A DNA stretch of 64,000 bases from Dipteris shenzhenensis (Eukaryota): NCBI GenBank assembly GCA_047967505.1, contig CM106538.1; one strand, 5' to 3'. Each line of letters opens with the position of its first letter. Position 1 is the stretch's first letter. Shown in pieces: positions 12,585-64,000 of this stretch. A program made the translations under genes and the position numbers. Under the pieces are notes generated by a model. It did not search any database, was not told the origin of the DNA, and saw only the letters and a program-made list of their open reading frames with translations.

Positions 12585-13908
12585 CCCCATAAATTCACTA
12601 ACAGTCTAGTGTGCTTTGGCAACGTATATCCGGCCACTGTGCATTCTTCTGTTGATGCATGCGGAACCAGAAATGGAGCTGGGCGATGCAGACGGAACGT
12701 TTCCTTCATCACACAGCTCAAGTAGGGGAGACTGCCGGTGTCCGATCCTTCTACCATGTCTCCAGGGCGCCCCTGCACAACGGTGTCCAGTTCGTCTTGA
12801 AGTTTCTTTAGACAACGTGGATTCCTCAGCAGCTCTGCCATCGTCCATTCCAGTGTGTTCGATGATGTGTCTAAGCCAGCGCCCAATAGATCCTGCAAGC
12901 GTAAAATACGTGTCTCCAGCAGACAACCCTCTGATACGATTCTTTTTTGTCAAATCCGTCCAATTCTTTCGATTGAAAGCAGCAACCCGAAAGAGATCTA
13001 TGAGAGTTCAGACATCTTACCAGTATCATTCCTTTTGCGGTGGTTTTGTCGGGTGCTTCCTCACCGCCCGTTATGGTCGACGATTAAAGAACATCAAGGA
13101 AATCGCTAGGGGTGTCCGTTGCGTTCTCGTCTCTTTACTGTTGCCTCTCAGCCAGAACATCCTCCAGAAGCATATCAATCAGGCAGTGAAGTTCATCCAT
13201 AGCGCGCTTGACTTTCACATCTAACCATCCAAGGTAAGGAATGAAGTCTCCTATCACTGGAGTTGCAAACGAGGCAGACACCCTGCGAATGAGATCCTTG
13301 AGGGAAGAACGGCCGTTCACTCTGCGGTCGGAAATTCGATTTGAGAGCACCATCCGACCGACAACATCCGACGTCAAAGCACCGAGACATTCACCCAGGT
13401 TGATGGGTAGCTTCCCTCCCTGAGAATGCTCTTGCATACCTCGCAACATCAGCCGGAGCTCCTCCGTTCTGATGTGCTGAAGCTTCTCCATCGAGGTCCA
13501 TGGGGCCCGAAAATGAGACTGTGGTGCCGCCCATAACCAGCACGTTCGGCGAACTCTAAAGGGGGGCGATCTGCAAAAGCTCTATTATGGGTGAGAAGGA
13601 ATTCTTTGGCTAGAGATGAACTGGAGACGACGACGGCAGGCATGGAACCGAGGCGAAGGAAGAGGAGGGGGCCATAATTGTTAGAGAAGCGGGCGAGGGT
13701 GAGGTGTGAGAAATCGGAGAGGAGGTGGAGGTGGCCGATGATGGGCAAAGCAGGAGGGCCGGGGGGAAGCGTGGACGAGGAGAAGATCATGCACGTGGAG
13801 ATATTTAGCACGGCGGAGGAGGGGGAGCATCCCAAGCTCACATAGCCACAACTCCATCTCTAGAAGGACCTCACAGTGTGCAAAATCTAGAGGAGCCATA
13901 TCATACAT
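12585..13908 (-). pseudogene. A-type (CYP71 clan) cytochrome P450 pseudogene: exon 1 ~13908-13021, intron 13020-12893, exon 2 12892-12585 truncated before PERF and heme motifs
   Basis: Motifs LPPGPPALPIIGHLHLL, YGPLLFLRLG, GDFIPYLGWLD, AGLDTSS (I-helix) and KETFRLH (K-helix). A GT..AG phase-0 intron lies at the conserved KGMIL|DLLGAG position. Lesions: frameshifting deletion near 13490, two in-frame TAA stops (13135-13137, ~13084) and loss of homology after VNLWG. Confidence 0.92.
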
Positions 13909-25900: not shown

Positions 25901-28813
25901 AATGGAATGAAACTCTTATGCCGTTTGGGTTATGTATCGCATTTGAGTTTCACTGATTTTGAATTTTGTGAGCACTGTCTCTATGGGAAGCATACTAAAT
26001 CAGCCCATAAAAGAAGGGGAAAGAAAGAGTTTGAAAAGCTTGATTTGGTGCTTTCAGACGTATGTGGTCCCATGCCTACACGGTCATTAGGCGGGGCTGA
26101 ATACTATGTGACATTCATTGATGATGCAACTAGGAAAGTGTGGGCTTATGCTATAGCTCGGAAGAGTGATGTGTTCCAGGTATTTCAAAAATGGCTGGCC
26201 TTGGTTGAGAATCAGTCAAGTAGAATGCTTAAATGCCTACGGACTAACAATGGAGGAGAGTATCTCTCTCATGACTTTCAGCATTTCTGTGATACACGTG
26301 GGATTAAGAGGGAGCTCACATCCCCTCGTACTCCAGAGCAAAATCCAGTTGCAGAAAAGATGAACCGTACCATTCAAGAAAGGTTGCAATGCATGCTTTC
26401 CAATGCAAGTCTCTCTGGTGGTTTTTGGGCTGAGGCAATGAAGACTGCAGTACATGTGATCAATAGATCACTAGTAAGAGTTTGGATGGTGGTATTCCTG
26501 AAGAGGCATGGAGTGGCAAGAAGCCCTCTTACTCTCATTTGTGTATATTTGGGTGTGAGGCATATGCACATGTGCCAAAAGAGCTTCGAAAGAAGCTAGA
26601 TCCTAAGTCTAGGAAATGTATCTTTCTGGGTTATGGTGAAAGTGGAGAGATGGGCTATCGTCTCTGGGATCTAGAAGCAAAGAAGATGATACGCAGCCAT
26701 GATGTGGTCTTCAATGAGAAGAAGATGCATAAGGCACCCATGAGGGATGTGGAAATGAGGAGAATCACTTTCCAGGATGTGAATCCACCTACATATGTTG
26801 ATAGACAGCAAGCTGTCCATGCACCAAATGTGCAAGAAATGGTACCATCAAGTACTCCCACAGGTATACAATCAAGGGTAGATGATGGATCATCTATTGG
26901 TGGAAATGATGAGCCAAATGTGGTTGATATGCAGGTGGGACAGCAAGCTGAAATGCCCTTGAGAAGATCTTCTAGAGTGTCTAGACCGCCTGATAAGTTT
27001 GTTTCAAGGGTAGACTATGTGATGCTTACTGATTGCGGGGAGCCTTCTTGCTACAAAGAGGCTATGATGCGTGAGGATCAACGCAAGTGGGAGTATGCTA
27101 TGCAATCAAAGATGAGTTCACTTATGAAGGATAAGACTTGGGACTTGGTTTCTTTGCCACATGGAAAGAAAGCATTGCCATGTAAATGGGTCTACAAAAT
27201 GAAGGTCACAGGTGATGATGTGCCTAGGTACAAGGACCGTTTGGTTGTTAAGGGTTCAAGCAAGAGAAGGGTGTGGACTTTGATGAGATATTCTCTCCAG
27301 TTGTGAAGATGACCACACTTAGATGCATGCTTGGACTAGTGGCAGTAGAGGATATGGAGCTTATGCAGATGGATGTCAAGACATCTTTCTTGCATGGGGA
27401 TTTGCATGAGGAAATTTACATGGTGCAGCCAAAAGGCTTTGAAGAAGAGGGCAAAGAGCATTTAGTTTGCAAGCTGAATAAGAGTCTCTATGGTCTTAAG
27501 CAAGCGCCTAGAGAATGGTATCAGAAGTTTGATGCTTTCATTCGGTCCCAGGGTTTTAGAAGGAGTGAAATTGATCACTGCCTCTACACTAAAAGGGCTA
27601 AGGATAATAGCCTGATAATCTTGGCACTATATGTGGATGATATGCTATTGGCTAGCAAGAATACTTATGAGTTAGATGCATTAAAGGCCAAGTTGCATGA
27701 GGCCTTTGATATGAAGGATTTGGGACTTGCAGGTCATATTCTTGCTATGCGCATCACGCGTGATCGCAGTAGGAAACTCCTTTGGCTTTCACAAAAAGAG
27801 TATATTACAAAAGTATTGCAGCGTTTCAATATGGAGGGGGGGAAGGCAGTGAGTATTCCATTGCCTCCATATGTGAAACTGAGTCATACAGATAGTCCCA
27901 AATCAGAAGAGGAGAGGGCCATGATGGCCAAGGTTCCTTATGCATCAGCGGTTGGGAGTCTTATGTATGCTATGATAGCTACTAGACCAGACATTGCATT
28001 TGCAGTGGGAGTTGTTAGCCGGTATATGGCTAATCCAGGAAAGAGGCATTGGGAGGCAGTTAAGTGCATCATGAGGTACATGAAGGGTACCAAGGAGATG
28101 TGCATCTACTTTGGTAGAGGAGACTTGCGTGTATTTGGGTACACAGATTTAGACTATGCAGGGCATGTGGATAGTAGGAGATCCACTTCTGGTTACGTGT
28201 TCACCTTTGCAGGTGGTGCAGTGTCGTGGATGTCTCGCACACAGAAGTGCGTTGCTTTGTCTACCACAGAGGCTAAGTATGTTGCAGCCACAGAGGGTTG
28301 CAAGGAGGCTATATGGCTTGATCGACTAGTGGGAGATTTGGGGATTCATACAGGTGTACCGACATTGCATAGTGATTCCATGAGTGCTATTCAGCTAGCA
28401 AGGAATCAGGTCTTTCATGCAAAGACCAAACACATTGACGTCAGGTACCATTTCATCACGGAGGTACTTGAGGACAAGCGCATAGAGCTTGTCAAGTTTC
28501 ATACAAATGATAACCATGCAGATATGCTGATGAAGAGTCTACCTAGTCAGCGGTTTGAGTATTGTCGTGTATTGATGGGCATTGGATAGTATGCTCACTG
28601 GTTGTTCTCCCTTAAAGGCACATTGTCCTTTAAGTGGGAGGTTGTGGGGGTTAAAGGTCACTGTGCCTTTACCCCAGTTACATACAATACTCAAACACAT
28701 ATATAAATGAATGAAAAAGAAGATTAGGGTGGTTCTGCACCCACCAAAACTTGTGTGGCTCTCTATCTCTCTCTCTCCTTCTTCCATTCTTGCTTCCGTT
28801 GAGAGCACTCTCA
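22901..28813 (+). mobile_element. Structurally complete Ty1/copia element C (Tnt1/Tork-like): LTRs 22901-23071 and 28643-28813, PBS 23074-23085, PPT 28632-28641, TSD CCTCG
   Basis: Two 171-bp TG..CA LTRs differ at 6 positions by manual count. CCTCG flanks both ends (22896-22900, 28814-28818). PBS is TGGTATCAGAGC. Confidence 0.97.
24524..28589 (+). pseudogene. Gag-pol polyprotein of copia element C, disrupted by stops and frameshifts
   Basis: KFDGINFSLWK, zinc knuckle CYHCGKKGHMKKD, protease WILDFGASFH, GAG-pre LWHCRLGHMS, integrase, RT LYVDDML and RNase H QKCVALSTTEA / HAKTKHIDVRYHF, split over at least five ORFs. Confidence 0.93.
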
Positions 28814-29503
28814 CCTCGCCTAGTCCTTCACCGACATACCTCTTTGCATTAGGATGTGCACAGTCTTGTGTGGTAGCTACTTCAGGCTCATGGGTTCTCT
28901 GCCCTTGCTATGCATAAAATGAATGAAATGTATCTTTACTACTTTCTTGTTTGAGTCAAGGGTACTCTGCCCTAGGTTGTCCCCCAAAATGAATGCAAAT
29001 AAATCATGTGTGTTGAGTCAAAGGTTCTCTGCCTTGGATAGTCCTCCTAAAAAGATGTATTTTCCTATTTTGTTTTTGTGGGTGGCTCCATGTCTCTCAT
29101 TAGCCCCTGGAGCCAGAAGGGGATGTACTGTGGGAGCCATATATTAGCTTTGATAGGTTTAGAGGGGGATGTATTATGGGAGCCATGTATTGGCTTTGAT
29201 AGGTCTCGCTATCAGGCCTGCCCAAGTTCCACGATGTTGGTGTATTCCTAGACCTATGATTTGGTCATGTAGCCATGCTATAATGTGAACCTCTGAGTAT
29301 GTTGAGTCTCAAGCCATGAGAGTGCTTGGATCAACCTTTGAACACACTCAGGCTTTAGCCTCTAAGTTACATAGGGTGCACAGTTTGATGACTGTCATTG
29401 TCATGTTCTGTTCTTAGTTCCATTCCAATAGTCCCTCACCTTAGACCATCATTGTCATGTTCTGTTCTTAGTTCCATTCCAGTAGTCTCTCACCTTGCTG
29501 AGG

Positions 29504-40600: not shown

Positions 40601-43600
40601 CTATAGTGGTTCGTTGTTCAAGAGGGAACTTCTCTTGTGGCTACTCTTTTTCTTGTGGTGGCTTGAGCATCCCTTCTGCAAGGCCTTGCTTTGAGACATC
40701 TTAGGCAATGTACGTTTACATGATCATGGCCATCATTTGTTTTGTAGGGGGAGAATAGCAAAACACATACTCGTTGTAGATTCTCATTCTCCTGAAGGTG
40801 AGACAGGCTACAATCGTGTTGTAGATGAGAGAGGCTACAATCCATCTTCCATCTTGGTAGAACTGCTTGATCGTGAATTTAGTAGGGGAGGTTGGAATGT
40901 ATGACAGTTGAAGATATGATTGCTACTTTAAGTGATTCTGACTCCTATTGTGAGTCAATCCATTGAACTTTCCACCTCTTTGAGGGAAGCTTGAGACGAC
41001 CAGCTCGTGGAATATGGATGAAGTTGAGTTGCATTGAATGTTAAATTACACGGCGCAGCGGAACAGAAATTGAACAAAGAATAGAGAGTACCGCAAATTG
41101 AAGATGGACAAAATTTTCCTTCAATACTGATGGTATAGATGATGGCTCTGTCCACCCGTGTGCTCCCACAGTGGAGCTTAGATGGCGATCTAGACAGATA
41201 CTAGGTGAAGAGCTACTAGTTGGAAGATCTTTGTTGGAAGATTTGATCTGGTACAATGGATTGGGGAGGTCGCCTCTTTATAGCTATGAGGGTGGTAGTC
41301 GGATCAACGTAGTCGGTGGAACCGACCAGTCAACCTAGTTGGTGAAGTCGACCAGTCAACCTAATCGATGGAATTGACTAGTCGTCCATGGAATATTCAG
41401 GAAATATTTCCTATATCGTTGCCTTGGGGGCTCTCGTCTCGAAATCCCCACCAGGGGGCTGGTTGGCTCCCCTGGGACTCCTTAGTTGGGGCCCAGCTGT
41501 CTCCCAAGTCCCAGTAAGAATAAGGGGCTCCCACACAATCACCTTTCCACAATCAACGGTCTCATTGATAGACCTCATTTGACATGCAAGTCAGGATCCA
41601 TCTAGTGTCTCGGGCTCACACATGGCTTCTTCTCATATGGGGGCCTTACAACTTGAGCACCTTGGACCATTGGTGGTTACCAGGAGGGTGGGACATTGAG
41701 CATATCTAAGATCCCTCCTCTATGTCCATCCGTATGTGAGCTACCTTCTCGGCCCAATGCCAACTCTCTGAAGATGACCCTGAAGTTGATCCTTCTCGAG
41801 TGCCTTGGTGAAGATATCTGCTCCATTTTGCTCTGTTGGACATTAGACCAATTCCACTATCCCGTCCTCGATCAAATCATGCACATAGTGATATTGAATC
41901 TCTATATGTTTTGTGCGTACATGAAACATTGGATTTTTAGCAATGGCCATGCAACTTTGATTGTCGCACCTCAGTACAGTTGCCTCATTCTCTTGCACTC
42001 CCATGTGCCATAAGATCCTTCTCAGCCACACTACTTCATAAGCAGCAAAACATGTTGCCTTGTACTCAGCCTCGGTAGAAGACAATGCCACTGTTGGTTG
42101 TTTCTTACTGATCTAAGAGAAGATACCTAAACCTAAAGAGAAACAATATTTAGAAATTGATTTCCTGGAATCAACATCTCCAGACTTCAATCCCCGAGAG
42201 ATGAAGATCTTGCTTGGCTCTTGCCAGACTTCAATTCTCGAACAGTAGTGCATCAAGCCTAAGTCTGTCATCTCAAACTTTGTGCTCAACCCCTTTTTAG
42301 TCTGTTGGATCATGTCTTCATAGTCACCTGTAATAAGGAGATCATCCAATATAGAACAATAATAGCAGATTTTTCACCTTTCCTGTACATATACAAGTTA
42401 GCATCTGAGGCACATCTTTTGAAGTTTAATTTATGAAAGAATTTGTCTATCCGTTGATACCATGCTCTTGGGGCCTGTTTCAGCTCGTACAAAGCCTTCT
42501 TCAGCTTACATATCTTGTTCTCAGAATGGGGGTCTCAAACCCAGGTGGTTGAGCTAGGTACACCTCCTCCTTGAGGTCACTATTTGAGAATGTTGATTTA
42601 ACATCCATTTGATAAATTGGCCACATTTTATGAGCAGCTATCGATAGTACTGTGCGAATAGTGGTCATTCTGGTAGTCGGAGCGAAAGATTCTTGAAAAT
42701 CAAACCCTTCAACTTGTGAAAATCCTTGTGCAATCAATTTGGCTTTATACTTTTTCAAAGTTCCATCGGCCTTGTACTTTACCTTCCAAACCCACTTGGT
42801 GCTAATAACCTTTCTATTAGGTGGTCGATCTACCAGCTCCCAAGTTTCATTCTTCATGATGCTATCTACTTGCATAGCGTTTTTCTAATCTCAGTTTGCA
42901 AATGCTTTCTCCAAACTCGTAGGCTCCTTTACTTCTGAAATATTTTCAGCCATCAAGGCCATATTGACTATGTGAGCAGAAGCCCTCCTTTGCTCCTCGA
43001 TTCTTTGAGACCGCCTTGGTTCATCTGCATGCTGCTCAACAGACATAGGCATCTGGTTATCATGGTGGTAGAGTTGTCTTACCCATCGCGGCAATAGCTT
43101 TTCCGGTGGTGTAACAACAGGTTGGTGACTTATACCTTCATTATCTGATATTTCCTCGAATGCGGCTTGTCTCTTGAGCCCTATTTCTTGAGGACAATAA
43201 ATTGCAAAATACAGCAGTGCACTCGGATACTTTTGTAGTGCATTTTTGGACTTTAGATGGTCCTTGGCACCCAATCAAAAGTTTGCCTGTCATCATTAGC
43301 TCTTAGTATGAGGAATTTACCATGCATCAGACTGCACAACAATGAGTTTGGGAGATTCTTAGTTGATCCATAGGATCCCCATCCAAACAAGTGGTATCTA
43401 CCAATGAAAACAGACTTATAATTGGTTGTTAGTGTTGGAAAGCTGAAAGGAAAGCAAAGAGTGGACACAAACTCAGAATACTTGCTTATGGAATGAAGAA
43501 GAGTGAGGTCCTTAAGTAGGCACCTCATACAAGCTCACTGACATCACTGATGACCTCAGAGCTCCACAATCATCTCCTCAATCTGCTCTTAGATTCTCTC

Positions 43601-46600
43601 AATCGTCCTATGTGGCTCTTCCACCACCTAACTGTGCTTGTGGGCACCTAACTGTGCCTCTAGCACTCACACATAGAAACATAAGGTGTGCCTGAGGCAT
43701 ACACCTTGAGATATCCCAACAAACCCCCCCTCAAGGAAATGCCTTAGGCTATGTCAAGGATACATCTAGTCTCATAGTTTCTCATGCCATCTCATGGTGG
43801 TCAAGGATAAATCTATGGCTAGGTTCTTATGCTAGCAAGGGTTTCCTTGGGTGTAAGGTAAACAAAAAAGGGATACAGAAAGACCTTCCAATGGTTATCT
43901 CCTCTGCATGTACATGCACACAATGTCTGTAGGAGGTACCATGGAGCAAAACATACACATGGCCTACATTATAAGGTGACCAGAGGTGTTTACAAAACAC
44001 ACAAAACACAATAGTTTATTTCATTCATTTTGAAGGACTATCCAGGCTGAGTACCTTGACATAAAAAAGAGAGATCTGGAGCATACATAGAGATGATTAA
44101 AATGCATAATCTTCATGGGATGCCTCATCTTGTGGAGGCTCAACTGAAAGTAGATTTGCATTTTCTTTCTTTGCTTTGGCTCTGCAAAACTTCTCATTAT
44201 GGTTGTTCTTGCCACAGTGCTTGCATGGATTAATTTTGAAGCAGTCCTTTGAAAGGTGATTTGTCTTTCCACAGTGATTGCAAGGAGTATACTTGCCCTT
44301 CTGGCCTTTACAGCATAAGCAGTGTCATTGCCTTTCGTGAGCTCCATATGCCTTTCTTCTTCTTGGAGAGCAGAGATAATACCTTCAAGATTAGGATTAG
44401 GAAGATTTTTCAAAGTGGTAACTGTGTGATCATAATCTTCAGGCATGCTCTTAAGTAACATTGCCATAGCATCATCTGGAGAAATAGGAGAGTTGATAGA
44501 AGCTAATTGAGTCGCTAATTGAGTCATAAGACTCCGCATATAGTTGACATGAGCTGCTAAAGTAGTACCACTAGTCATCTTCAATTCAAAGAAAGAGATT
44601 TTAAGTGATAGTTTAGAGATGTGAGAGCTAGCACCAAAAATCATGTCAAGCTTCTGCCAAGCTTCCGAAGGAGACTCCAAGTCAGAGATATGGTGTATAT
44701 AATCATCTCCTAAAGCAAGAGCAATAATACCGTATGCTTTTTCTTCTCTAGCTGGATCCCTTGCCGATCGTGTCGGAGTTGAGGATTCTCCAGCATTGGA
44801 GGCCGTAGAAGAAGCGATAGGAGTCGGTTTGACAAGTCCCCATAAGTTCTCCCTCATCAATGCAAATTTCACCTTCATCTGCCATGTGTGGAAGCCCTTT
44901 CCATTGAACTTCTCGAGATTAAATAGGGTAGCCATGAGAGGGTTTAACCCAGATATTGGGCAGTGTCTATCTCTCTTACAAGGAAAAAATAACTGAAAGA
45001 CTTCCAAAATATGAGCACTTGATGTAGCAAAGACTAGTGACCAATATTCAAACAATGATGCTTCTTCTTACATGCTTCATAGAAGTGGGTGAAATAAATA
45101 CTTTCCAATCAAAACCAGGTCTAGTAATTCAAAACAAAACTGAAGCCACACTTGTACTAAAGTTATTGAAAGCTTCAAAAAACCAGAAATGCTAGAGTAG
45201 CATTTTATGTAGCATCATCTTCAAAAACTTGTCCAAAATTGTCAAAACTGAAAAGCTGAACTTGGAGGGCTTGTAGCTCACTCTTCAAAGCAAGGAAAAG
45301 AGGGCTTTCTGAAGCAAAAGAAAGCTCATATACCAGAGAGGGTCCAGCACAGAGGTTGGACGAAATGGTGCGCACTTTTGCCCGGGAGAGTTGCTACAGG
45401 CTGAAACTGAGTTTTGACGATTTCTCCCTCGTTACTGAACCAAATGACCTGAAAAATGGCTCAAAATCTTCGTCTTGAGGTCGCCCATCTACTCCTAAGA
45501 GGGCTCAGGCAATGGCGGAGCAGGCAGGGAGTATTGAGCAACAGAAGAAATGCGCTGTTTGGAGAATGGCAGCCACCACAGACGTTTTTTCTTCAATTGC
45601 TTGCAGGTGGAGGTTCGCCCATACTAGAGGAGTTTCTAGCTCAGAGGGTTTGGGCAATGGTCGTTTGTAGGTGGAGAACCAAGCTCTCAAAGATTTTGGG
45701 AAGAAAGAGGAAAATGGAGAAGAAGAAGATGAAGAAGAAGATGATGATGTGACAGAAATGGGCTCAAGGGGGATCAAATGGCTCTGATACCATGTTGGAA
45801 AGCTGAAAGGAAAGCAAAGAGTGGACACAAACTCAGAATACTTGCTTATGGAATGAAGAAGAGTGAGGTCCTTAAGTAGGCACCTCATACAAGCTCACTG
45901 ACATCACTGATGACCTCAGAGCTCCACAATCATCTCCTCAATCTGCTCCTAGATTCTCTCAATCATCCTATGTGGCTCTTCCACCACCTAACTGTGCTTG
46001 TGGGCACCTAACTGTGCCTCTAGCACTCACACATAGAAACATAAGGTGTGCCTGAGGCATACACCTTGAGATATCCCAACAGTTAGCACTCTCAATCAAG
46101 CTTCTAGTGCTAATTATTACTTGCATAGAGCTTCTATTGCTATCTAGCTTTCACAATAGGAATGAAAGTGCTAGCTGGCACTCACAACAAAGTTTCAAAT
46201 GCTATTTAGCACTCATAGTGGTGCTTCAAGTGGTATTTGGCAGTAAAAATAGACTTGTAACTGGTAGTCAGCACTCTTAGTCGAGGAAGCAACTAGTAGT
46301 CAGCAATAACAATATTGTAGATAGTGCTAGTTATCACCACTACAAAGTACAAGTTAGCACTCATAATAGAGTGTGAAGTATTAGCTAGCACATTCGTAAG
46401 CACTATTTAGCACTGTGAATAGAGAACTCTTAAGTGCTAATCAATATTCACTGCCACATGGCAGCCAGCTATAGGCCCTATATCTGGTTGGCCAGGTAAT
46501 GCAGCATTAGTAGGGGGACTCGTCTAGCTTGCCTATAAATAGTAGGCTGTACGGTGTTCTTTAAGTCTTGGGACTCGTCCAGCTTCTGCGCCACCTACTT

Positions 46601-51669: not shown

Positions 51670-52193
51670 TGATTCTTCCTTGGAGCCATATGGGTCCAAG
51701 TGACTTGTAAAAAAAGAGAAAAGAAAGAGTGGACATAAGATAATAGGGTTGGTCCTCCCTTCAAAAGGTGAGATGTATATAAAACCAAAAGTTTGACTTT
51801 GGTCTTCACTTGTTTGCACAAGTTTGGAATACAAGCTCTCTTTTCTCACAATGATTTTTTTTTACTCTTCTCTTGTTTTTCATTGTAGTGTCCTTGTGAT
51901 TGCCACTTTGCTCCTCTCTCTTTCCCCCTCATCCTCATCCTCATACTCATCCTCACCCTCATCCTTATCCTCATCCTCATCCTCCCCCTTCCCATTCTCT
52001 TTCCCCATCTCCCCACCCCCTTTCTTCTTGTGGAGTCACATTGCAATAATCAGGAAGCTTAGAGTGACACTAGTGGTCGAAAAGCCTTTGCATCACTCCC
52101 AACTAGGAGTCAGGTGGAGTAAAGCTCATCGACGTGTCGGGCACATCCCCATGATCGCTAGGACCAACACATTTTCGGTGCCGCTACTAGGGG
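51670..52193 (+). mobile_element. Athila-like LTR 3' portion (ends 52171) with tRNA-Asp-type PBS
   Basis: ..CAACACA is followed by TTTTCGGTGCCGCTACTAGGGG, a decayed TGGCGCCGTTGCCGGGG. Homologous to 35580-36128. Confidence 0.7.
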
Positions 52194-52944
52194 TAGCCAA
52201 GTATGCTTTTGCATTGTGTTTTGTTTCCTTTAGTTATCTACCCATTGCCTAATGCTTTCTAGCTTAACTAGGAGTGTTGGTTCTAGAGAATAGGAAGAGG
52301 TTGAGTAAAAGAAAGAAGAATACCTATGTTTTCTATTTTTGGAGCATTTGAGGTGAATGTGAGTTGTTTTTTGGTGTTTTGTGTTGTCAAATCATATTAG
52401 AAGCTAGTTTAGATGATCGCTAAGGTGTTTGTACAATCAAATTTCAAGAAAAATACTATGAAATGATATTTTTGCATGAATTTCCAGTTCTTGGGAAGAT
52501 AAAAAATTCACATCATAGAAAAGTTTCCATTTTTGCTACAAAATATTGTTCTTTTTTTTGCAATTGGTAGAATAAGTAATATAGGGCCCTCAGAAGCATA
52601 AAACTCTCCACAAAAACTCAATATTAGTGGAAAATAATCAAACTCTTATTGATGAACTACATGGAACAAGAAATGTTCGGCGACATGTTGCATTAGTGCT
52701 AACGTGATGCCACATCACATTATAACGCAATGCCATGTAGCATTAACTCACCAAACTCTGATAGATCCTACCAACTGCTAGTTGACATTTAATGCTCATG
52801 TAGTGCTGTCAGTCCCCTACCCACGTTGCAATAACCTTAACGCAACACCGATGCCTTACTGTAATGTAGCCCCCGATGTGATATCTGTAATGTGGTAGGG
52901 AGTCTTCTGTACCTTACCAACACTCGCCTCGACATCTCTTTTCC

Positions 52945-53395
52945 GTTGGAGTCTTATGCAAGTTCTGTGCCAAACCCAAGGAGGCACACTGGAGAGCAGA
53001 ATTAAGAGTCCTATGGTACCTACAATGTACAGTACCTATGGCATTACCTACACCTCAGACCTGGACCTTGGGGATTTCTATGATTCCAACTGTGGGCCAG
53101 GGACTTCGACACTCGAAGATCCACTACAAGCTATTGTTTTGTGCTTTCTTTAGGAGTTATCTCATGGCTCAACAAGAAGCAACCTTCTGTTGCCCTCTCA
53201 TCAACGGAGGCAAAGTACAAGGCTACATGCACTGCAGTATGCGAATCTTTATGGCTCAGATGGATGTTGGAGGATCTGGACCAGACATAGACCGAGGCGA
53301 TCGTGATCCTGTGTGACAACCAGAGTTGCATGGAGATTGCAAAGAATCCAATGTTTCGCACCAAAACCAAGCACATCAAGGTTCACTACCGTTAT
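52945..53395 (+). mobile_element. Copia RT/RNase H fragment
   Basis: SWLNKKQPSVALSSTEAKYKA..DNQSCMEIAKNPMFRTKTKHIKVHY. Confidence 0.85.
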
Positions 53396-54539
53396 GATGT
53401 TTGAGCATCAAGCGTAACACGATGGAAATACCATCATCCATAACATAGCATCCTATAGGGAAGCCCATCATATTAGCCTCCATAATGCAATGTCCTACAT
53501 AGGTTTCTTGAAGGGTTGCAATCATTCATCTAGACTGCTCATTGTATTAGCCTCCATAATGTAGCATCCTATAGAGGTTGCTTGAAGGTCTAGTAGGGTC
53601 CTTGGAACAAAACCTAAACCCAAAGATAGCATTTCCAAAAATATCCTATTTAGCTATACCTATGAAGTTTTGCATCTGCCCATTTTGGAACTTTAGTCTT
53701 GAGTGCCTATTCTATGCACATACCGCCCCAAGAGGAGACATCTAGCTCCGAAAAATCAATGAGTGCGCCTATTTTGTGCACATACCACCTAAAAGGACAC
53801 ATCTAGCCTTGGAGGTCCCAAACTCCATCTCAATACCTCACTCCCCTACTCCCTCTGCATAACAGCCCGAATAAGAGGTATCTTTGCCAACATGATGGGA
53901 AGGTTTGGATTCTCAGAGTCTTCAAATAGGGTAAACCCATTTGCTCAGCAAAGCCAGGATTAGGAAGAGCCCCAACATCCCCCACAGTTTCCACCCCACT
54001 TGTGTTGTCAGTGGTCTAGGGAGCTAGATCTCATCGGGTTCAAGGGCAACCCACTTTATGGTGATAGTCAGTCATTTGGACATGAATTTGGTTCACGACC
54101 ATCAAAAGACTTTCATGTAGATCCAAGTAGGCAACATAGTTTTCCAGGAGGTCTGCTTGTGAGACCCTCTACTACTAAAGCACGAACATTCTTGGCTTGG
54201 AACCAATATAGAGAGGTATGCCCTATCCAACAAACAGCCCATGTAGACCCATGTTTCGAGTGAATGTGCCAATCCCTAGAGGGCCACTAGTCCAACCACG
54301 AGGCCTATCTGGCCCCACTCCATCATTCTAGTGTTTGGGGGATCAGGATCTAGAAATACTACCTTTGTGCCATTGAATCAGTGGACCACCATTCTAACGG
54401 ACGAGGACACGAGGATCCTAGTGCAAGCACTAGGAAGGGAGTCAACCACACCTTTAGTGTTTCTAGGAAGGGATACAAATCCCTTGAGAAGAAAACCTAT
54501 CACAATCTCAAATTTAACCATTGAAAAATAACCATTGAA

Positions 54540-55060
54540 AAGGGAGACCCAGTCAGTCTCCTATGTTGAAAAATAACCATTGAAAAGGGAGACCCAGTCA
54601 GTCTCCCATGTTGAACACTTTGAGAAGATTTGTGAGACATTTGGTGACGTTGAAGATTTGGACAAGGTTATTGCTTTATGATTTAAGTCTTGATGGTAAG
54701 GCTAGACAATGGTTCAGGGCACTAAACCCTAAAGAGAAAATCAATTTCATAGTGGGGTTCACCCATAGTGGAGCCTTATCAACCAGCTTTATGAGGTAAA
54801 GAAGATGGAGACAGAGCCCTTAAGGGACTATATCACCAAGATTAGACATCTGAATTTGCAATGCAAGCCCCACGAAAGGATGAGCGATGCGTAGCTTCTG
54901 ACATGTTTTCTCTTTGGCCTATGGGATCCTAAGCTTCATGATCACTTGTTTGCCATGATTCCCATGTCGTATGAGTTATGCAGTAAGATGACATTATGCC
55001 TAGGTGACAACATGATGGAGAAAGCTCAAATGGATAAACCTGCAGCTTCCTCTAACGTGT
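54540..55060 (+). mobile_element. Decayed gypsy gag (probably belonging to the LTR/PBS at 51670-52193)
   Basis: VEHFEKICETFG, LSLDGKARQWFRAL, EPLRDYITKIRHL and CFLFGL: Retrotrans_gag pattern with frameshifts. Confidence 0.75.
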
Positions 55061-55908
55061 CACAAATGGTGAAGTATCCAACCTCAAAAAGCAACCAAAG
55101 AGACAAGAGCACCTTGCAAGGGAATGAACATAGAAGAGTTGGCCCTAATCTTCTGAACCAACTAGGTCAACAATGGAAGGCAAGAGTGTCCAAGGAGACT
55201 CCTAGCAACCCTCATTTCACTCCACTATATTTCCTTCCATCTTTTGTTCTCTCAGACGGGCTGTTGTCACCAACCTTGTAACATCTCCTTTCCCACTTCT
55301 TCGCTTATTCACTTTCTTTGATTTCTTCTCCATTCGGCTCCTTGCAAGATGTCTGCTCTCTCATGACTCTCTCAAAGGTTCACTTTCAAACTTTGTCTCT
55401 CATCTTAACCAAGTGCATACGAGTTGTTTGAACCCAGAACATTCCCGCAAGGCTTCAAGTTTCATGGGTTTACCTTCTCATTGCTACTGTGTCACGTTTC
55501 CCGTTGGTTGATCTAGGCCCTCTTGGCATTTTGCCCTTCCTTGCTCTTTTCCTTGCTAGTATCTCTATCCCGTTTGTAATACCACTCTATGTCAATAAAG
55601 AATACAATTTTCAAATTATTTTCTTATTTGTTACAAAATATTGTTTCCTTTTGCATGTAAGTAAAATTGAGTATTATTTCCTTTTACATGTTCCATTGAC
55701 ATTTACTGTTTATTATCTCATTTTGCATGTAAGTAAATTGAGATTACATGTAAGTAAATTGTAGATTGCAAATACAATGAAAATATATTTGAGATTGCAC
55801 ATACAAAAAAGACACTTTACTATATTGAAAAGAGGATGATTCAAAACTGATGCCCAAAGGCAGAGTACATGAACTCTTACTATCACACAAGGTGTATATA
55901 CAAAAAAC

Positions 55909-56652
55909 CTAAGTGCCCTTGGGCTTCCTAAGACGGACATTAAACTGCATATCGTTGGCGGTCACAGTGACCCTTTTCCTGTGGATTGTAGCCAGTTGGG
56001 TTTCATCCATGAGGTCTACCAGGTAGGCCTCAGCTGCATGTTGCAAGGCATCTCTGGAAATATGCCATGGAGCCTCCACAATTGCACGCCTATAATACCA
56101 TGACATGGGACTATTGTTGAGGTCCTGCAAGACCTTGCGTACCACCCTTGCGAAGCTTGCCATCAAGATGAGCAGATCCATAGACTTTTGAAACTTTTTA
56201 ATTTCCCAAATTGCCATAGTCCCTAGCTTGAACTTGTATCTCCTCATTGGAGGAGGGCTCTTTGCCCTTTACATGGAGGGCCTCTTCCTGGATGTGGAGG
56301 GCCTCTTTGCCCTAGATCTGGAGGTGGATGTCCTCTCCTCATGGGTGTGGATGCTGATTCTCTGCTCTTGACTTGGTCCTTTGCTCTGTCCTTCACTATT
56401 GCTCTTCCTTCGCTCCTCCTCCGTGCTCTTTGAGTCACATGTCTCTGCATTATGATCTTATGTGCCTTCCTCTGTCCGTCTTTTTGTGGTCCTGCCCCTT
56501 GCTCCCTCTCTATCGGCCTCCGAAATGGCAGTTTCTCCCTTTGACATGGATCATCACGGGGAGAGGAGGGGGGATATCACTCTCTATCTTGAGTCTAGAG
56601 ATGGGTTTTGCTGTGCCAATCTCTTTGGTGCATTAATATTGGGCCTAGCCAT
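55909..56652 (-). pseudogene. Intronless divergent histone H3-like (CENH3-like architecture) gene, 247 codons, five in-frame stops in the N-tail
   Basis: ATG at 56652 (MARPNINAPKR) is in frame with the 56247-55909 ORF, 405 nt downstream. That ORF is a histone H3 fold: YKFKLGTMAIWEIKKFQKSMDLLI, SFARVVRKVLQD, ALQHAAEAYLVDLMDETQLATIHRKRVTVTANDMQFNVRLR. Confidence 0.88.
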
Positions 56653-56754
56653 GGAGGATGGAGAGAGTGTGCAAGAGAAAGGGTGAGGGTGCGAGAGAAA
56701 GGGTGTAAATGTCAGGGGCAAGTGGGAGGTGGTTCAAACAATGAAATGAAAATC

Positions 56755-58450
56755 CTCAAGTTTGTGTTAAGCTAGATGTGGCTGTCGACCTTCTTTACAA
56801 CCTAGTGATTGTCAATAGAAATGGGAGTATACTTGGAGCAACCATTAGTGTACAATAATTTACCTAATTCTTGTTTCCTTTGTGGGTTATCTACCCATAC
56901 AATAAAAAACTGTCCCTTGAAAAGAAATGAATCCAAGACCCCACAGGAATATCCTCAGCAACATGCTAACCAACCCTCCAAACCCAAGTGGACTGTAAAA
57001 GACAAAAAGAAACCTCAAACACAGGAAGGAGTTGCAGATAAAAGAATCAACAATGCACCTGTCAAAGAGCCAGAAGGAGTGAAGAACACTAAGGTACACT
57101 TAGGGGAGGACAGAGTCACTTTTCCTCTGGCTACTAACAATGCTTATGAAGCCTTGATAGAGCATGAAACTAAGCAATGGATCCAGGTAGCAAAAATGGA
57201 AGAGGATGAGGTCCAGCCTGGATGGTCAAAGGAATTTGAATATGATGTCAACCAATAGGATGCAAGTATGATTGACTCTCAGTTAGATGACTCAAAGGAG
57301 GAAATTCCTTTGTACCAGCTAAACCATGAGCCACAGTTCAAAATAAGAGAAGAATTTGTTAGGTCAAAGGCTAGAGTGTCCCTCCCAAAAACATTGCCCC
57401 TAAGGCAAAAAAGGGGAAGAACATAAATGGTAAGTAGCCCCTTTTCATTCCTCACATAAAATGTGTGTGGATTGACTGACCCTTTGAGGAGTCAGAAATT
57501 AGCCAATTGGTTGAGAGGAAACTCTCTTTCTCCAACCTTTCTTGCCCTGCAAGAAGTTAAAGTTATCAATGATGTCTTGTTAAATAGACTCAAAAGCATT
57601 GATAGCATAAGAGTGTGGTTTTTAACCTCTCATGAAGAGGGTAGAGGTGGGACTGCAATAAGGTACAAAGACTGTGTGTCCAAGTGTTAGCAAGATGTAA
57701 ACCACAAATGGATCAAGTGCCAGCTGAAAAGAATAGCTTTTACTATGGTTTTGGTTTATGCTCCAACTGGAACTATGATTAGAAGAGCCACATGGGATAC
57801 ATTGATGGGTATTGGCAGTGATTGTGTGATATTAGGGGACTTTAATATGGTTGAGGGGCCACAGGATAGATGGTTGTAGAAGGGTCTGTGCTTAGAGGCC
57901 CTGAGCTGCAAATCTCAGAAGACCTTATGGAAAACTTACAACTAGTGGACATTGGTACATCTGGCATTTTTACCTGGTGCAATAAACAGATAGGGGAGCT
58001 CAAAAGAGAGGTAAGACTGGATAGAGTGCATGTCTCATTGTCTCTTTTAGATCAATCTTTGGAAGTCAAACAAAAGACCTTCTCCTCCCACACCTTATTA
58101 GACCATAAACCTATCTCTGCCTGGCTACATATGGGGAATGGTAGGAAAGGTAGCTCTTGGTTTAAAGCTGACCCCTCCTTATTCAAACTTCAGAGTGTTT
58201 AGAAACAGGTCATTGAAAAATGGAACATGGCCTTCTCTACAAAATCTTGCTCTCAGGGATGGCAAAATGCTGTGCTAAGTGTTCAAACAATTTTAAAAGA
58301 ACCAAGAAAAAGCAGAGCTACCATTAGGGCTAGGTGAATGGATAAGTTGAAGGAAGAACTGGAACAACTAGAGCAAAAAGCTAGTTTACAGGACAATAAT
58401 GCCTAGCAATAACTTCTAGACAAAAGAAAGGAAATCAGAAACGAATAGGC
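56755..58450 (+). mobile_element. L1-type LINE remnant: ORF1 3' part (zinc knuckle) and ORF2 AP-endonuclease from ATG 57427
   Basis: YNNLPNSCFLCGLSTHTIKNCP; T*NVCGL, LALQEVK, VYAP, LGDFN, FTWCN, RLDRV and DHKPI. Confidence 0.88.
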
Positions 58451-58849
58451 ATGTGTACATCTCTAGGAAAACTAGAAACCTAAGAAAAACTCATTCCTTG
58501 GAAGTAACTTGCTTTCTTTATCAATTTGGGCCCTCCCACTTTTCTTGATATTGGTCCATAACTTTATGGTAGGATTGTCTCATATTTATTTGTGTATATC
58601 AATTTCTTTTGTGATATCTACATTGAATGGATTGGGGTGATGAGCCTTATAAAGAGCTATGTATTCCTAAGATAACGTGAATGTGCTATAGATTTTAGGA
58701 ATTGATTTGTTGTTACAATTTCAAATTCTTTGGAAGTATGATAAATCATTCAATTAGTATGTTCTTTCAGCTATCTATTTTTTTTGTCAAGGACATATGT
58801 CTCGTGATGTCAAGTAGATTGGGAGAGGTACATCCTAATGGTGGAGGCC

Positions 58850-59470
58850 ATGAGTACGCAATCTATGATTAGACTCTTTCATATTTTTAAAATCCTATCT
58901 AAAGTGCTCAAGATCAAGATGTAATAGGATAGGACATGATTGGATGCATCTTCACAAACTAGGGTGTAAGGGCTCTGCACATAGACTACTTTAAGATTTG
59001 GAAAATATCCTATGGCATCCCCATGATATTGGATTTAACTTTATACTTTGAAATTTTTTAATTTAAAATTTCTTGGTGTACAAGATAAAGAATTTTGTTG
59101 ATATTGTAGGTGATTGGAAGATCTAACATATTAACATATATTTCCTATGGGAATTTAGGAGTTAAGGTGGCATGACATGGGGAGTTCTAATCACCTAGAT
59201 GTCTCCTTGACTTTTTCTAACCTAAGCACCATCTTAGGGATGACTTACCATGTATGGGATGCCTTAAGAGGCTTGTTAGGAATTATTTATGCAATGCTAA
59301 ATTCACTTCTAAATTTTGAGCACTTTGGAGTGACAAAGTCAAAATGCATTGTGTTGTGGAATATATGTTAGGTAGATTTTGTTGAAGGGATAATTGCTAG
59401 CTCAAAGAGTCAAGATCCCCTACTCCATTTACAAGGATGTGAATTCCTTGAGGAGGAAGTATGTTATATT
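58850..59470 (+). mobile_element. Decayed gypsy (chromovirus-like) 3' end with PPT and start of LTR near 59462
   Basis: GSAHRL (AYRL-like) and LRWH-like stretches; CTTGAGGAGGAAGTA is followed by TGTTATA. Confidence 0.4.
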
Positions 59471-60539
59471 TTTTACTAACCACAGTTTACTAGTAGCTAG
59501 CCCTATGGTTAAGGGGAGCCTAGGCTACTAGCTGAAGATGGAAGGCCGTAGGACAGTTTTAGAAGTACCATCTACATTAAAGGACTACGATGTAAAGACA
59601 ATTCATTATATATTTAGCCATGTTGTAGAGTATATGTTGGCATGAGGGATTGGGCCATGGGCATTCATTGATCGAAGTATTTGGATCATGGATCTTAGTC
59701 GCAGGCATGGTAGATGGGCAAGCTAGTCCAATGCCTCCTCTGTGGAGGGGATGTCCATGGTATGGGGGGTGTCCATGGTACACTAGCAAGCTATTCCAAT
59801 ACATCCCTTGTGGAAGGGGGTATGGGGAGGCATGATTTCTACTAGGATAAGATTGGACCAAAGACCAAAGACCATGGTTGGGTGATGAGTTTCAAATGGT
59901 GGTGATTGTTGTAGGAGTTGTCAAGGACACCCAATCTCATCTTCTAGGTATGTTATTAGCACAATAGCAGGAACAGGATTTTGATGGTAAGGGCCATGAA
60001 CTGAAGGTTGATGTCATCTATTTTTCCCTAGGTACTCACATATTGTAGGGTCTTCTATTCATCCACCACATGATGGTTGCAATTGTGGCTACCCATGGAG
60101 TAGGTTCTTTGTATCTTATCTTGCTCAAATTTCTACAAGAAATGACTCATATACATAGCTTTCCTAATGATGAGATGTAATATGAAACAAATAAGGGAGA
60201 CACAAAGATGAGATGTATCTTGAATCAATTAAGGAAGACAAAGTAAAGTATTACAAATGACGATGAGATATAACCTAAAGCGAACAAGGAAAAACTTCAA
60301 GAAATAGAAAACATAATGTATATGCAATGCACATGCACAATTATTAGAAGTTAGAGAGAGAAGTCTTCACACATTGAACAAAATGCATAATATTTGTAGT
60401 GAGCCTTAGAGCATGGGGACAAACTAAGATCACCAACAAATTTAAGAAATTGATTGATGCCTCATAATTGAAAAAATTGCCTTAAATCTCACAAAATTTT
60501 TTCAAAATTGAGAGCTATTTAGAATATACATAATTGACA

Positions 60540-61950
60540 TGCTTTATAACTTGAGAGATGTATTCGTTGTTCAAATCCATGCCCTCATCTTAGCCATAGG
60601 GTTTCTTGCTTCGTGCTTTGTTGATGTTGTGTGCATGCTTCAATGCTAACACGCTTGTCTCAATCCTACTTATCCCAAGAATATGCAAGAGCATTATAGT
60701 GGATTTTGAAAGAGACCCTCTTGGAAGGCATAATTGCACTCAATGAGAACTTGGACATGTGCTCAAAGAACCAACCCACCACCACAAAGTAATTAGAGGC
60801 CATCAAATAAGGACTCTCTTTAGGATTGCCCATCATTGAGGAGTGTAGCTCCTTTGCAAATCAAGGGAGTGAGGTGACAATCTTAAGTTAGGAAACCCTC
60901 TATCCAATACAAAGGCTTTCCCAATTTGATTATCTAGATAGGCATAGCATGTAATTGTAGGCATTCATATCGACGTGTTTGATCAAGGAAGTGAGTTGAT
61001 AATCTTCAATTAGGTGTCCCTCTATCCAATATAAATAGTTTCCTTAGTTGATGATCCCAAAAGGCATAGATACACCATCTAGAGTGAAGTCTAAAATGTA
61101 ATTGTACGTATTCATATATGTATGTGAAGAACACTTCTTTCATGACCGTATCCAACAATGAGCAATGCACATAGTGTTGCTTGTGACTTCATAGCAAGAA
61201 CATCCACTCTTTTTGAGGCTCCTCCTTTCAAGGTAACTTTCTTATGAATTAGGAATAACTACCACAAAGGAGGGAGTAAGACATCTAAGAATTTCATGGA
61301 TGCTTTCTTCCATTAGAGTATGGAATTATGAGCTAGAGTTGATAATTTCCTATACACCAAATAGCTCAATAAACAAGGCAATGGGCCATGGTAATAAGTA
61401 TCTCAATATGCAAAGTTGCATTACAAAGCACATGATCAAGTCGAATTTATCTCACAACACATCACACAGAGAGTCTAAAGTACATTCATGCGCTGGAACC
61501 AATGTATCATTCCTTCCACAGCCTTCTCAAGCTACTTGTTTAGCTACAAGGCTTTGAGGGAAAAGTTGACCATGCACATGCAAATGTAGATGCATGCTTG
61601 GTGCCTAGACCTTATGATCCTACCTTTCCTTCTAATGTATTTTCAAGATGCTTGTGTAGTATCTACAAGGCTTTGATGGAAAACTTGACCACATATGTAC
61701 ATGGATGCATGCTTGGTACCAAAATTGTAGTTGGAGTTTCTCTTCTTGTGTGATCTCGAGATTACACTAGTTTGCAAGCCAACGAAGAAACTGGCAACAT
61801 GTTTCAATGCACTAACCATCAAGATTCATAGTGATCCCTTTCTTTGATACCGTCCTAAACGTCTATAGCTCTCATCTTGTTCCACTTTGTTAACCATCTA
61901 TTAGACTTTTACTATGCACCAACTAGCAAACTTATGAACTCACTCTTACA
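60540..61950 (-). mobile_element. Highly decayed gypsy pol remnant
   Basis: LAYES-like RNase H stretch near 61190 and C..Q..KPYG integrase zinc-finger-like stretch near 60600. Confidence 0.4.
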
Positions 61951-62579
61951 ATAGTGCTAAACCTCAAAAAGCACCTCCCAAGAAAGTGGGGATAAGAATA
62001 AGAGACAAATCATTGTGTTCAAAACTTGATACTTTTGAAAAGGCATGGAAGTCTTGGCACACTATTTAAAAGAGCTTGTCTTTCATTTTGTCTAGCTCCA
62101 CTTCAAATGGACACAACGCTCACAATCTCTTCCTCATTCAAACATATGATATATCTTACCACACCTTCCATGCTCCCATGATGGGAGGAATTTAGCCCTT
62201 CTCTATTTCCTTCTCTATGGCTAATGGCAAAACCTTAGCGGAGGATGGTCTTCCCATAACGTTTTATGTAAGTAGTTTTGGGAACCTATTGGGTCTTACC
62301 TTCTTGATGTGTGGTTAGAAAGTATGATGGCTTGGCTAAAGTTTTATATATTAAGTAGTTTTAGGAACCTATTCGGCCTTACCTTTTGGATGTGTGGCAA
62401 GAAATTCTTTTTCTTGGTTCTTCATGATGCAACAATGGAGGCATCATCAAGTAGATATATGAGGGGGGCCCAAAGAAGGCACTAAAAATTTGAAGACCTC
62501 TTACAATGCTTAATTATAGTTACAAGATCGTAGATAAGGCATTACCTACCAGTGTCAATATTGAAATGAAAGCTTGGTT

Positions 62580-64000
62580 AAGCCTTAGCAAATAGGTTTT
62601 ATCAAGGTAGATAGATTCTGGAAGCTGCCATTAATCTTCGAGAGAGGATTATGAGAGAGACGGGGTAGTACATATTCTTCATATTGGTCTCACATCAGTT
62701 GACTTTGATAAGACATGTGACAAGCTAGATTGGGACTTTCTTCATCTATCCCTAATGGACATGGGGACATGGGTTGAATTTATAGGTTTCATAAGGTTGC
62801 TACTCACTAATGCTTTAGCCAAGGTGGACATCAATGGTGAAGTTCTAGGAGCTTTTACATTGTAGAGATCAATAAGGCAAGGTTGTCTCATTGGTCCTCT
62901 ACTTTTTTCCATAGCCATAGATGCCCATGGGTAGGTCATAGATCATGAGGACAATAATGGTGACTATAAATGTATAGAGCTTCCTAATGGAGCACTAGTA
63001 AATCAACTATTTGCAAATGACACCATGCTTACTCCTAGAAACATTGACAAGGATGTGTGCAGTGTTATCAAATATTTGGAGACATTCTATCTAGCCTAAG
63101 GATCTCTTATCAACCACAAAAGACAACATATTCTCCTTTTTGACAAAACACCATCCTTTGCTAGATGCTATGGGATGCTAGAGAATTTAGAAGGGAACAA
63201 CTTTTGGAATTCTTGATGTTCCAATGGGTTTTGGAATTACAATGAAACAAAGATGGGACTCTACTTTACAAAAAATTTAGAAAAATATGGAAAATTGGAA
63301 AGGCTATCAAGCTAACCTCGCTAGGAGAAAGATAGTCCTCAATTATTGTATCTACGCTATGAACATATATATTTTGTTTCTTGGTCGTCCCTCTCAGAAA
63401 TTTCTCAACCAGCTTATCAGGACATGTAGATCATTCCTATGGGGAGGAACCAAGTCTAAGAGAAAACTTTCTTTGGTATGGTGGGCATTTTGCATTATTG
63501 AGAAAAGGGAGGGGGGATGGGCGTAATTAACATTCAGGATGCTTCTCGCAACATTTTTGCAACAAAGCCATACTCAATCCTAAAGAGACCTCCTAGTGAG
63601 AAATTTTCAATGGGTCAAATCAGTCAGGGAAAACAGATGGAAGAACTTCCTTATGCTAGCAACTATAGCAAACCTTGAACCTTGGACCACCAAAGGAAGC
63701 TCCTTTTGCAGATCAATGTGGGATTCCCTTGAGGCAATCAAGGCTCTAGTATTCTAGTCAAGGAAGGGCCATGTCACGCAATAAGCTCTATATGGTTTTC
63801 ATCTATCCTCAATTATGGGATAGAACTGAGCTTAAGTGCAAACAATGGCCAAATATTAGAATGGATTCTTGGCTTTAAAATGGGGACAAGGAGCTTTTTT
63901 GCCAAAGGTTAAGTCTATGGTCAAGGAATGATATTGGACTAGATATAGATGCTCTATCTTGAGGCACTAAATTTAGTGACGTTCCTAACCCAAAAGCATA
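62580..64000 (+). mobile_element. L1-type LINE ORF2 reverse transcriptase region, degenerate, runs to the right edge
   Basis: VDFDKTCDKLDWDF, RSIRQGCLIGPLLF, LFANDT, and NLARRKIVLN..RSFLWGG..KREGGW. Confidence 0.88.

Follow-up and report, generated by a model that had tools for sequence, protein, structure and literature searches.

A histone H3-like gene that lies among transposon remnants raises the question of whether it was carried there by a mobile element or came independently of its neighbours. Such a gene is found on the minus strand of a 64-kb stretch of Dipteris shenzhenensis DNA (contig CM106538.1, assembly GCA_047967505.1), which was analysed as a whole and is referred to here as the window. 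An earlier note on this DNA proposed that the gene may be transposon cargo, i.e., a histone encoded by a mobile element. The reading favoured here, with a rough probability of 0.45, is that of a dispersed dead copy, which would have arrived through RNA and would be unrelated to the elements next to it. The locus is judged to be an ordinary pseudogene, derived from a possibly interesting gene family.

The copy covers 744 nucleotides (nt) of the minus strand (55909-56652) and reads from an ATG at 56652 to a TAG at 55909. It forms a single frame of 247 codons plus the TAG, with neither introns nor frameshifts. Five in-frame stops interrupt this frame, namely TAG at codon 23, TGA TGA at codons 33-34, TAA at codon 65, and TAA at codon 128. 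All five are located within the first 128 codons, which form the N-terminal tail, while the 119 codons of the histone fold contain none. When the stops are read through, the protein can be aligned collinearly with full-length relatives, beginning at the first M.R.K..AK motif and continuing up to the end of the fold. The open reading frame (ORF) of the fold part (55909-56268, minus strand) matches the Pfam family Histone (PF00125) with an expectation value (E) of 6.7e-20 and 72 bits, exceeding the cut-off of 26.4, which confirms the antisense H3-like gene of the earlier note. A sequence search of the PDB with the fold gave 173 matches at E ≤0.001, and the 60 listed are all H3 or centromeric H3.

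The flanks of the coding frame are also recognisable. The pyrimidine-rich leader that had been described at 56653-56750 is indeed CT-rich, and includes a 20-nt unit present twice at 56665-56705. The tail carries an internal 25-nt repeat (56255-56279 and 56300-56324). On the other side of the frame, the AT-rich 3' region with repeats was likewise recovered. It contains an AATAAA at 55709-55714 and a repeated word of 15-18 nt, of which the 15-mer TTGCATGTAAGTAAA occurs three times with at most two mismatches (55651, 55723, and 55744). For this 15-mer, 0.26 copies are expected, and three were reached in 1 of 100 shuffles. A search for RNA families in 53000-59000 gave no match.

As to the kind of histone, the assignment to the H3 family stands, while the likeness to an ordinary H3 does not, as the fold points to a CENH3-like variant whose loop 1 is long. 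The tail starts with MARPNINAPKRL and shows no likeness to the H3 tail. Neither the ARTKQTARKS-type tail nor the short loop 1 of canonical H3 is present. In an alignment to solved structures, loop 1 exceeds that of H3 by 11 residues and that of fission-yeast Cnp1 by five. From the VR(E/K) motif to the conserved W, the copy has 22 intervening residues and the group of P0155 has 25, compared with 11 in the published land-plant CENH3 compared and 10 in H3. Both features by which CENH3 is recognised, a loop 1 longer than that of H3 and a divergent tail, are found in the copy.

A HMMER scan of 1.84 billion representatives returned 5702 matches at E ≤0.001, and among the 150 listed no single-stretch match shows more than 53% identity to the copy. 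The nearest matches with a similar loop (P0017/P0151, P0155-P0162, P0148, P0032, and P0034) are proteins 153-245 residues in length, which come from contigs the size of transcripts and are not named by any of the sources used. Within the fold alignment A1, the copy is 36-47% identical to these long-loop relatives, and over the full length the identity is 31-42%. A word-based protein search with the 119-residue ORF yielded no match at 65-209 residues. Furthermore, a profile search with alignment A1 revealed no closer relative among the 120 matches listed, which are mostly histone H3 records of ~270-410 residues. Two of these long records (P0312 and P0310) are tandem double-H3 proteins.

The phylogenetic tree comprises 24 rows and includes a single named plant CENH3, that of Setaria. 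The copy is placed within a 13-row clade together with the unnamed long-loop proteins, with a support of 97/95. This clade has the Setaria CENH3 as its sister (85/82) and is separate from canonical H3 (99/96). The end branch of the copy has a length of 1.66, seven-fold the median of 0.24, and its exact place in the tree is therefore uncertain. To judge from its sequence, the copy is a member of an unnamed clade of long-loop CENH3-like proteins and not a canonical H3.

A copy of the species' own CENH3 was considered as a candidate, but is weakened by published CENH3, which have an 11-residue loop and other motifs. In all CENH3 compared from supplement file 2 of PMC11687628, 11 loop residues lie between VRE/VKE and W, followed by RWTAEAL and (A/T)ED. 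This comparison covers Picea, Pinus, Cupressaceae, several mosses, Huperzia, and one liverwort, with the codon alignments translated by eye and the fern loop left out. The copy resembles land-plant CENH3 in its H3 fold, in a loop 1 longer than that of H3, and in its divergent non-H3 tail. It differs in the 22-residue loop and in having PWHISRDAL and AEAYLV where the CENH3 from this supplement have RWTAEAL and (A/T)ED. For seed-plant CENH3, a histone domain of five conserved exons is described in PMC12780178, whereas the copy is intron-free. None of the DNA words taken from the beginning of the relatives occurred in the PMC11687628 supplement, with ~400 characters per entry covered. Since loop length and motifs differ from those of published CENH3, the gene is called a CENH3-like long-loop H3 variant and not filed as CENH3. 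It is probably not an orthologue of known plant CENH3.

One genomic relative of the copy is available for comparison. When metagenome contigs were scanned with P0155, 114 stretches matched and one of them was confirmed, on contig RHMF01029035.1 (2858 nt, referred to as L001). L001 encodes an intact, intron-free relative of 168 residues at 1723-2229, which is identical to P0303. With such long-loop H3-like proteins, the copy shares the clade (97/95), the long loop 1, the motif AEAYLVD(L/M)M, and the M.R.K..AK start. In contrast to them, it has a tail of roughly double the length, lacks the C-terminal NNSDAF...NMP extension, and contains the five stops. A giant-virus origin was also considered. 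H3 relatives were found at 51 viral loci, with 28-48% identity, and the two examined (L048 and L002) proved to be ordinary short-loop H3, so that this origin was rejected.

The decay of the copy was assessed on family-conserved columns, defined by at least 80% agreement among the relatives (60 columns). The copy retains 37 of these 60 residues, compared with 73-100% in the 13 other rows. Its 23 departures consist of nine single C>T/G>A steps, two reverse transitions, five transversions, and seven multi-step changes. The losses within the fold include W-R-P of the WRPGT motif. CpG is depleted, with observed/expected ratios of 0.26 for the gene and 0.34 for the window. With nine single C>T/G>A steps against two in the reverse direction, the C>T decay typical of transposable elements, as described in the earlier note, is supported. 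The five nonsense codons and the C>T/G>A bias, together with 23 conserved residues lost out of 60 and the very long branch, show that selection no longer acts on the copy, which is dead.

The concentration of the stops in the tail could nevertheless be taken to mean that a tail-less histone-fold protein of 112 residues, starting at an internal ATG, is still functional. Five stops in 128 tail codons and none in 119 fold codons correspond to a Fisher p of 0.045 for stop-prone codons or 0.061 for all codons, which is marginal. In addition, such a protein would have lost more than a third of the family-conserved fold residues (23/60), W-R-P among them, and would sit on a branch seven times the median. 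A functional protein of this kind is hardly credible.

The origin of the dead copy is most readily explained by an RNA intermediate. Following this explanation, a transcribed unit consisting of leader, coding frame, and AT-rich 3' region would have been copied and written into transposon-rich DNA via RNA. Methylation and decay of the inserted copy would have followed. The LINE (long interspersed nuclear element), truncated at its 5' end, and the gag-like piece, one on either side of the gene, would be independent neighbours and not carriers. The copy carries the disabling mutations and the neutral decay of a processed pseudogene.

Several observations weigh against arrival through RNA. As already stated in the earlier note, neither a poly(A) tract nor a convincing target-site duplication is found at the copy, and this pair of processed-pseudogene features is thus absent. 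Their absence may be due to age. The sole flank match, an 11-nt candidate target-site duplication (AAAGGAAACAA, 56871-56881 and 55641-55651), is located inside the zinc-knuckle coding sequence of the LINE and therefore cannot mark the ends of an insert. The lack of introns in the copy is not proof of retroposition either, because the genomic relative on L001 is intron-free as well (1/1), and the argument from intron-free to retrocopy was dropped as proof once this became apparent. Moreover, on L001 a promoter-like TATAAA precedes the ATG by ~50 nt, and no A-run follows the gene. Finally, the relatives occur as many near-identical decayed variants, which could equally be produced by a mobile element.

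The same features of L001 bear on a different origin, namely a DNA-level duplicate, or an intron-free host gene that died in place and around which transposons filled in later. An intron-free genomic relative with a promoter-like TATAAA would be in line with this, as would the retained leader and the missing poly(A) and target-site duplication. At the locus, however, no upstream promoter region is left, as the LINE starts ~60 nt beyond the leader, and there is no second copy nearby. At such an age, a duplicate would also be indistinguishable from a retrocopy. This origin is regarded as rather improbable.

Dead copies of this kind have counterparts among plant histone genes. Two CENH3 pseudogenes are reported for cowpea (10.1101/2020.01.07.897074). 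For Platycladus, 224,957 processed pseudogenes are given in PMC13477047, where such pseudogenes are described as very common in some plant giga-genomes. The copy resembles plant histone and CENH3 pseudogenes in being dead, dispersed, and located in repeat-rich DNA. It differs from them in lacking poly(A) and a target-site duplication, and in having an intron-free source family, as seen in one genomic relative. The usual proof of processing is therefore unavailable for the copy.

The cargo idea was tested within the window. Self-comparison of the 64-kb window yielded 90 repeat pairs, and the 26 pairs of at least 80 nt were inspected. Among these 26, no pair of long terminal repeats (LTRs) or terminal inverted repeats (TIRs) brackets the gene. 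At finer resolution, the repeats within 52000-60500 proved to be short and internal, apart from one inverted pair of 19 nt whose arms lie 8 kb apart in AT-rich DNA. Within the window, the gene does not lie between an element's own termini in the form of LTRs or TIRs; Helitron ends are unrecognisable from a single copy. There is no second copy of the gene within the window. By itself, the window gives the cargo idea no support.

The two neighbours named in the earlier note, an Athila-like gag remnant and a head-to-head L1 remnant, are roughly as described, although the evidence for both is weak. A gag-like piece is present at sub-threshold level, and its Athila-like character was not borne out. 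A LINE does lie head to head with the gene on the plus strand, faintly indicated by three sub-threshold matches. These matches (zf-CCHC_4, Exo_endo_phos, and RVT_1) all remain under the Pfam cut-offs, but share one strand and one frame. The LINE is regarded as 5'-truncated because the part normally found before the zinc knuckle is missing. The truncation point and the end of the gene's leader are separated by ~60 nt, and the element runs off the window. Both neighbours are unlikely as carriers of the gene, because the gag match is sub-threshold and on the opposite strand, and the LINE has lost its 5' part and faces the gene head to head. This layout differs from the arrangement of known LINE or LTR captures. 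The earlier note had also described a purine-rich, ORF-like stretch at ~55200-55570, on the same strand as the gene. The stretch exists, but a coding function is not supported, with no Pfam match in any frame.

Two further observations concern these neighbours. The endonuclease and reverse transcriptase parts of the LINE are 4.6 kb apart, far beyond the spacing in an intact element, and the filling has no Pfam match. The wide gap within 56809-63117 is either due to an insertion between the two parts or indicates two fragments. Just left of the gag-like remnant, at 54521-54615, a 45-nt unit is tandemly duplicated (2.1 copies, 98%).

The position of the LINE allows for one more mechanism. Both strands of one target site could have primed reverse transcription, one on LINE RNA and the other on the mRNA of the H3 variant, resulting in a joint insertion. 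The head-to-head 5' ends, ~60-150 nt apart, and the missing ORF1 part normally found before the zinc knuckle would agree with such an event. Joint insertions of two RNAs are rare. In this case, neither outer end has a poly(A) and the pair lacks a target-site duplication. Moreover, the LINE is itself interrupted and continues beyond the end of the window. A joint insertion is considered very unlikely.

The relative on L001 is of additional interest for the cargo idea through its neighbour. At 3-1586 on the plus strand, L001 has an ORF of 527 residues, which is open at the 5' end of the contig and ends 137 nt upstream of the H3-like gene on the same strand. For this ORF, no Pfam match at E ≤0.1, no PDB sequence match, and no viral relative were found. 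Exact look-ups of the L001 ORFs in the protein collection gave no match. Among the language-model clusters, RAG1 core fragments are nearest to the 527-residue ORF, with a score of 0.95 and 194 of 256 features in common, and the same assignment is given by 8 of the 10 best family-bearing matches. A single-sequence AlphaFold model reached a predicted local distance difference test (pLDDT) score of 32 and was unusable. The putative RAG1/Transib likeness, drawn from language-model features alone, is treated as a lead only. As a separate observation, a third ORF is present on L001 at 2654-2856 (plus strand), after a (GA)n run. It starts with MVRVKKTP and runs off the contig. This start is reminiscent of the conifer CENH3 starts in the PMC11687628 supplement.

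The window and L001 show little in common apart from the gene. A relative of the 527-residue ORF was not found in the window, the best tblastn match having an E of 3.4. The likeness between the leader at 56653-56750 and that of L001 is not significant, as 41 of 500 shuffles scored as high. Flank likeness between the window and L001 as a whole is not above shuffles, with this 41/500 and a further 123/300 as high.

A set of relatives (P0155 and P0270-P0304) was compared as proteins alone. Subfamily 1 was defined as 14 full-length sequences (P0155, P0270-P0274, P0276, P0277, P0280-P0284, and P0288), with truncated members, P0162, and other subfamilies left out. All 14 are distinct and form a star around the consensus P0284, which is seen on seven contigs. 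They show 22 private changes, of which 12 are C>T/G>A-only, nine are transversions, and one is multi-step, with no reverse transitions. Several of these changes affect residues that are invariant elsewhere. Subfamily 2 consists of seven sequences (P0158, P0296-P0299, P0301, and P0302) with 18 private changes: seven C>T/G>A-only, one ambiguous, two reverse, six transversions, and two multi-step. The truncated relatives start at an internal Met. Taken as a group, the relatives look like a recently amplified, methylated repeat, which may span several species or samples.

A comparison of P0286 with L001 addresses how far such copies extend. The frame of P0286 continues open into its own upstream region. 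The two have the coding frame and ~84 nt upstream of the ATG in common, and then differ. For the further upstream 84 residues of P0286, tblastn against L001 gave no match, and a likeness beyond ~84 nt that was apparent by eye was not found by this method. Sharing that is limited to the transcript-like part fits copies of a transcript, and it is the pattern that the earlier note had named as contradicting a cargo origin. The upstream difference also means that the large ORF is not a constant neighbour of the gene.

These results bear on the possibility that the copy is a cargo relic, i.e., that a transposon family possesses its own long-loop H3-like gene, with a DNA transposon, and not Athila or L1, as the carrier. 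The intact relative located 137 nt after an ORF with RAG1-like features would be consistent with this, as would the star-like, decayed variants of subfamily 1 with their C>T/G>A bias and the truncated members starting from an internal Met. Capture of H3 by transposons is moreover known in fungi (PMC6710886) and has been reported once in gymnosperms (PMC13477047). On the other hand, the window contains neither termini nor a relative of the 527-residue ORF, and its flanks are no more similar to L001 than shuffled sequence. P0286 and L001 differ upstream beyond ~84 nt, the RAG1-like reading comes from one method, with a pLDDT of 32 for the model, and the variants may stem from several species or samples and not from one genome. 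A cargo relic is considered possible but unlikely, and for this copy the cargo reading is neither shown nor refuted.

A more specific form of this idea would be that the pseudogene is the relic of an undescribed plant mobile DNA element, in which an intron-free gene for a long-loop CENH3-like histone is located beside a RAG1/Transib-like transposase, and that the variants among the relatives are copies of this element. This proposal is regarded as a long shot.

The described captures allow a direct comparison. In Dothideomycete fungi, canonical H3 was captured and amplified by hAT elements and then inactivated (PMC6710886), and a duplicate of histone H3 arising from capture by a transposable element is reported for gymnosperms (PMC13477047). 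An H3 gene that is amplified by an element and then inactivated corresponds to the idea of the earlier note. In contrast to the present copy, which is CENH3-like, these captures involve canonical H3, defined carriers, and copy counts. A literature search with limited terms, judged by title or the start of the abstract, found no work on a long-loop, intron-free, multi-copy H3 variant. The same kind of search for CENH3 retrogenes or processed pseudogenes found no description of a long-loop family.

The locus alone carries little weight, being just another dead gene copy in plant DNA rich in repeats. The family may matter more, with a loop 1 twice that of the published land-plant CENH3 compared, an intron-free genomic copy, and many near-identical variants. 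If the copies were spread by an element, this element would bring its own centromere-type histone, which would be relevant to the targeting or shaping of centromeric chromatin by transposons. Should the copies instead be host genes, they would represent an unnamed H3 variant.

Table 1. Features of the H3-variant locus, its neighbours, and the wider window.
Feature	Position	Strand	Basis
Whole coding frame of the dead H3-variant gene	55909..56652	-	ORF reading, collinearity with relatives
Open histone-fold part, 119 codons, extra-long loop 1; internal ATG at codon 8 giving 112 residues	55909..56268	-	PF00125
N-terminal tail, 128 codons, basic, Ser/Arg/Glu-rich	56269..56652	-	Translation
CT-rich leader upstream of the ATG, ~100 nt	56653..56750	-	Sequence reading
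AT-rich 3' region, without A-run	55600..55908	-	Sequence reading
Gag-like remnant, opposite strand, left of the gene	54769..54924	+	Retrotrans_gag E 0.017, 15.8 bits, cut-off 24.1 (sub-threshold)
LINE start, 5'-truncated, head to head with the gene	56809..57867	+	Sub-threshold Pfam matches
LINE zinc knuckle	56851-56916	+	zf-CCHC_4 E 0.0013
LINE endonuclease	57451-57867	+	Exo_endo_phos E 0.00027
LINE reverse transcriptase	62470-63117	+	RVT_1 E 5.4e-5
Ty3-type element	~6.2-10.1 kb		Window survey
P450 fragments	12.5-13.9 kb		Window survey
Copia element between 96% repeats	22.9 and 28.6 kb		Window survey
Copia gag between 99.3% repeats	43.4 and 45.8 kb		Window survey

The window as a whole consists of transposon-rich plant DNA. 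At its start (1-1634), many overlapping self-matches with 67-76% identity, offset by about 185 nt, point to a degenerate tandem array. In this part, the only unit reported by Tandem Repeats Finder has 87 nt and is located at 413-571. The cytochrome P450 fragments are located on the minus strand (12527-13859), where 13452-13859 covers profile positions 1-97 and 12527-12949 covers 268-372. The fragments are in different frames, with overlapping ORFs between them, and their spacing fits a collinear, frame-shifted, possibly intron-free pseudogene.

Two copia-type elements are bounded by direct repeats. The first lies between repeats of 174 nt (22901-23074 and 28643-28816, 96%), and its integrase and RVT_2 ORFs are still long (25268-28586). 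The second is bounded by 289-nt repeats (43433-43721 and 45793-46081, 99.3%), which flank a copia-type gag ORF of 348 residues at 44024-45067 on the minus strand. The stretch from 43433 to 46081 is a young, short LTR element showing gag only.

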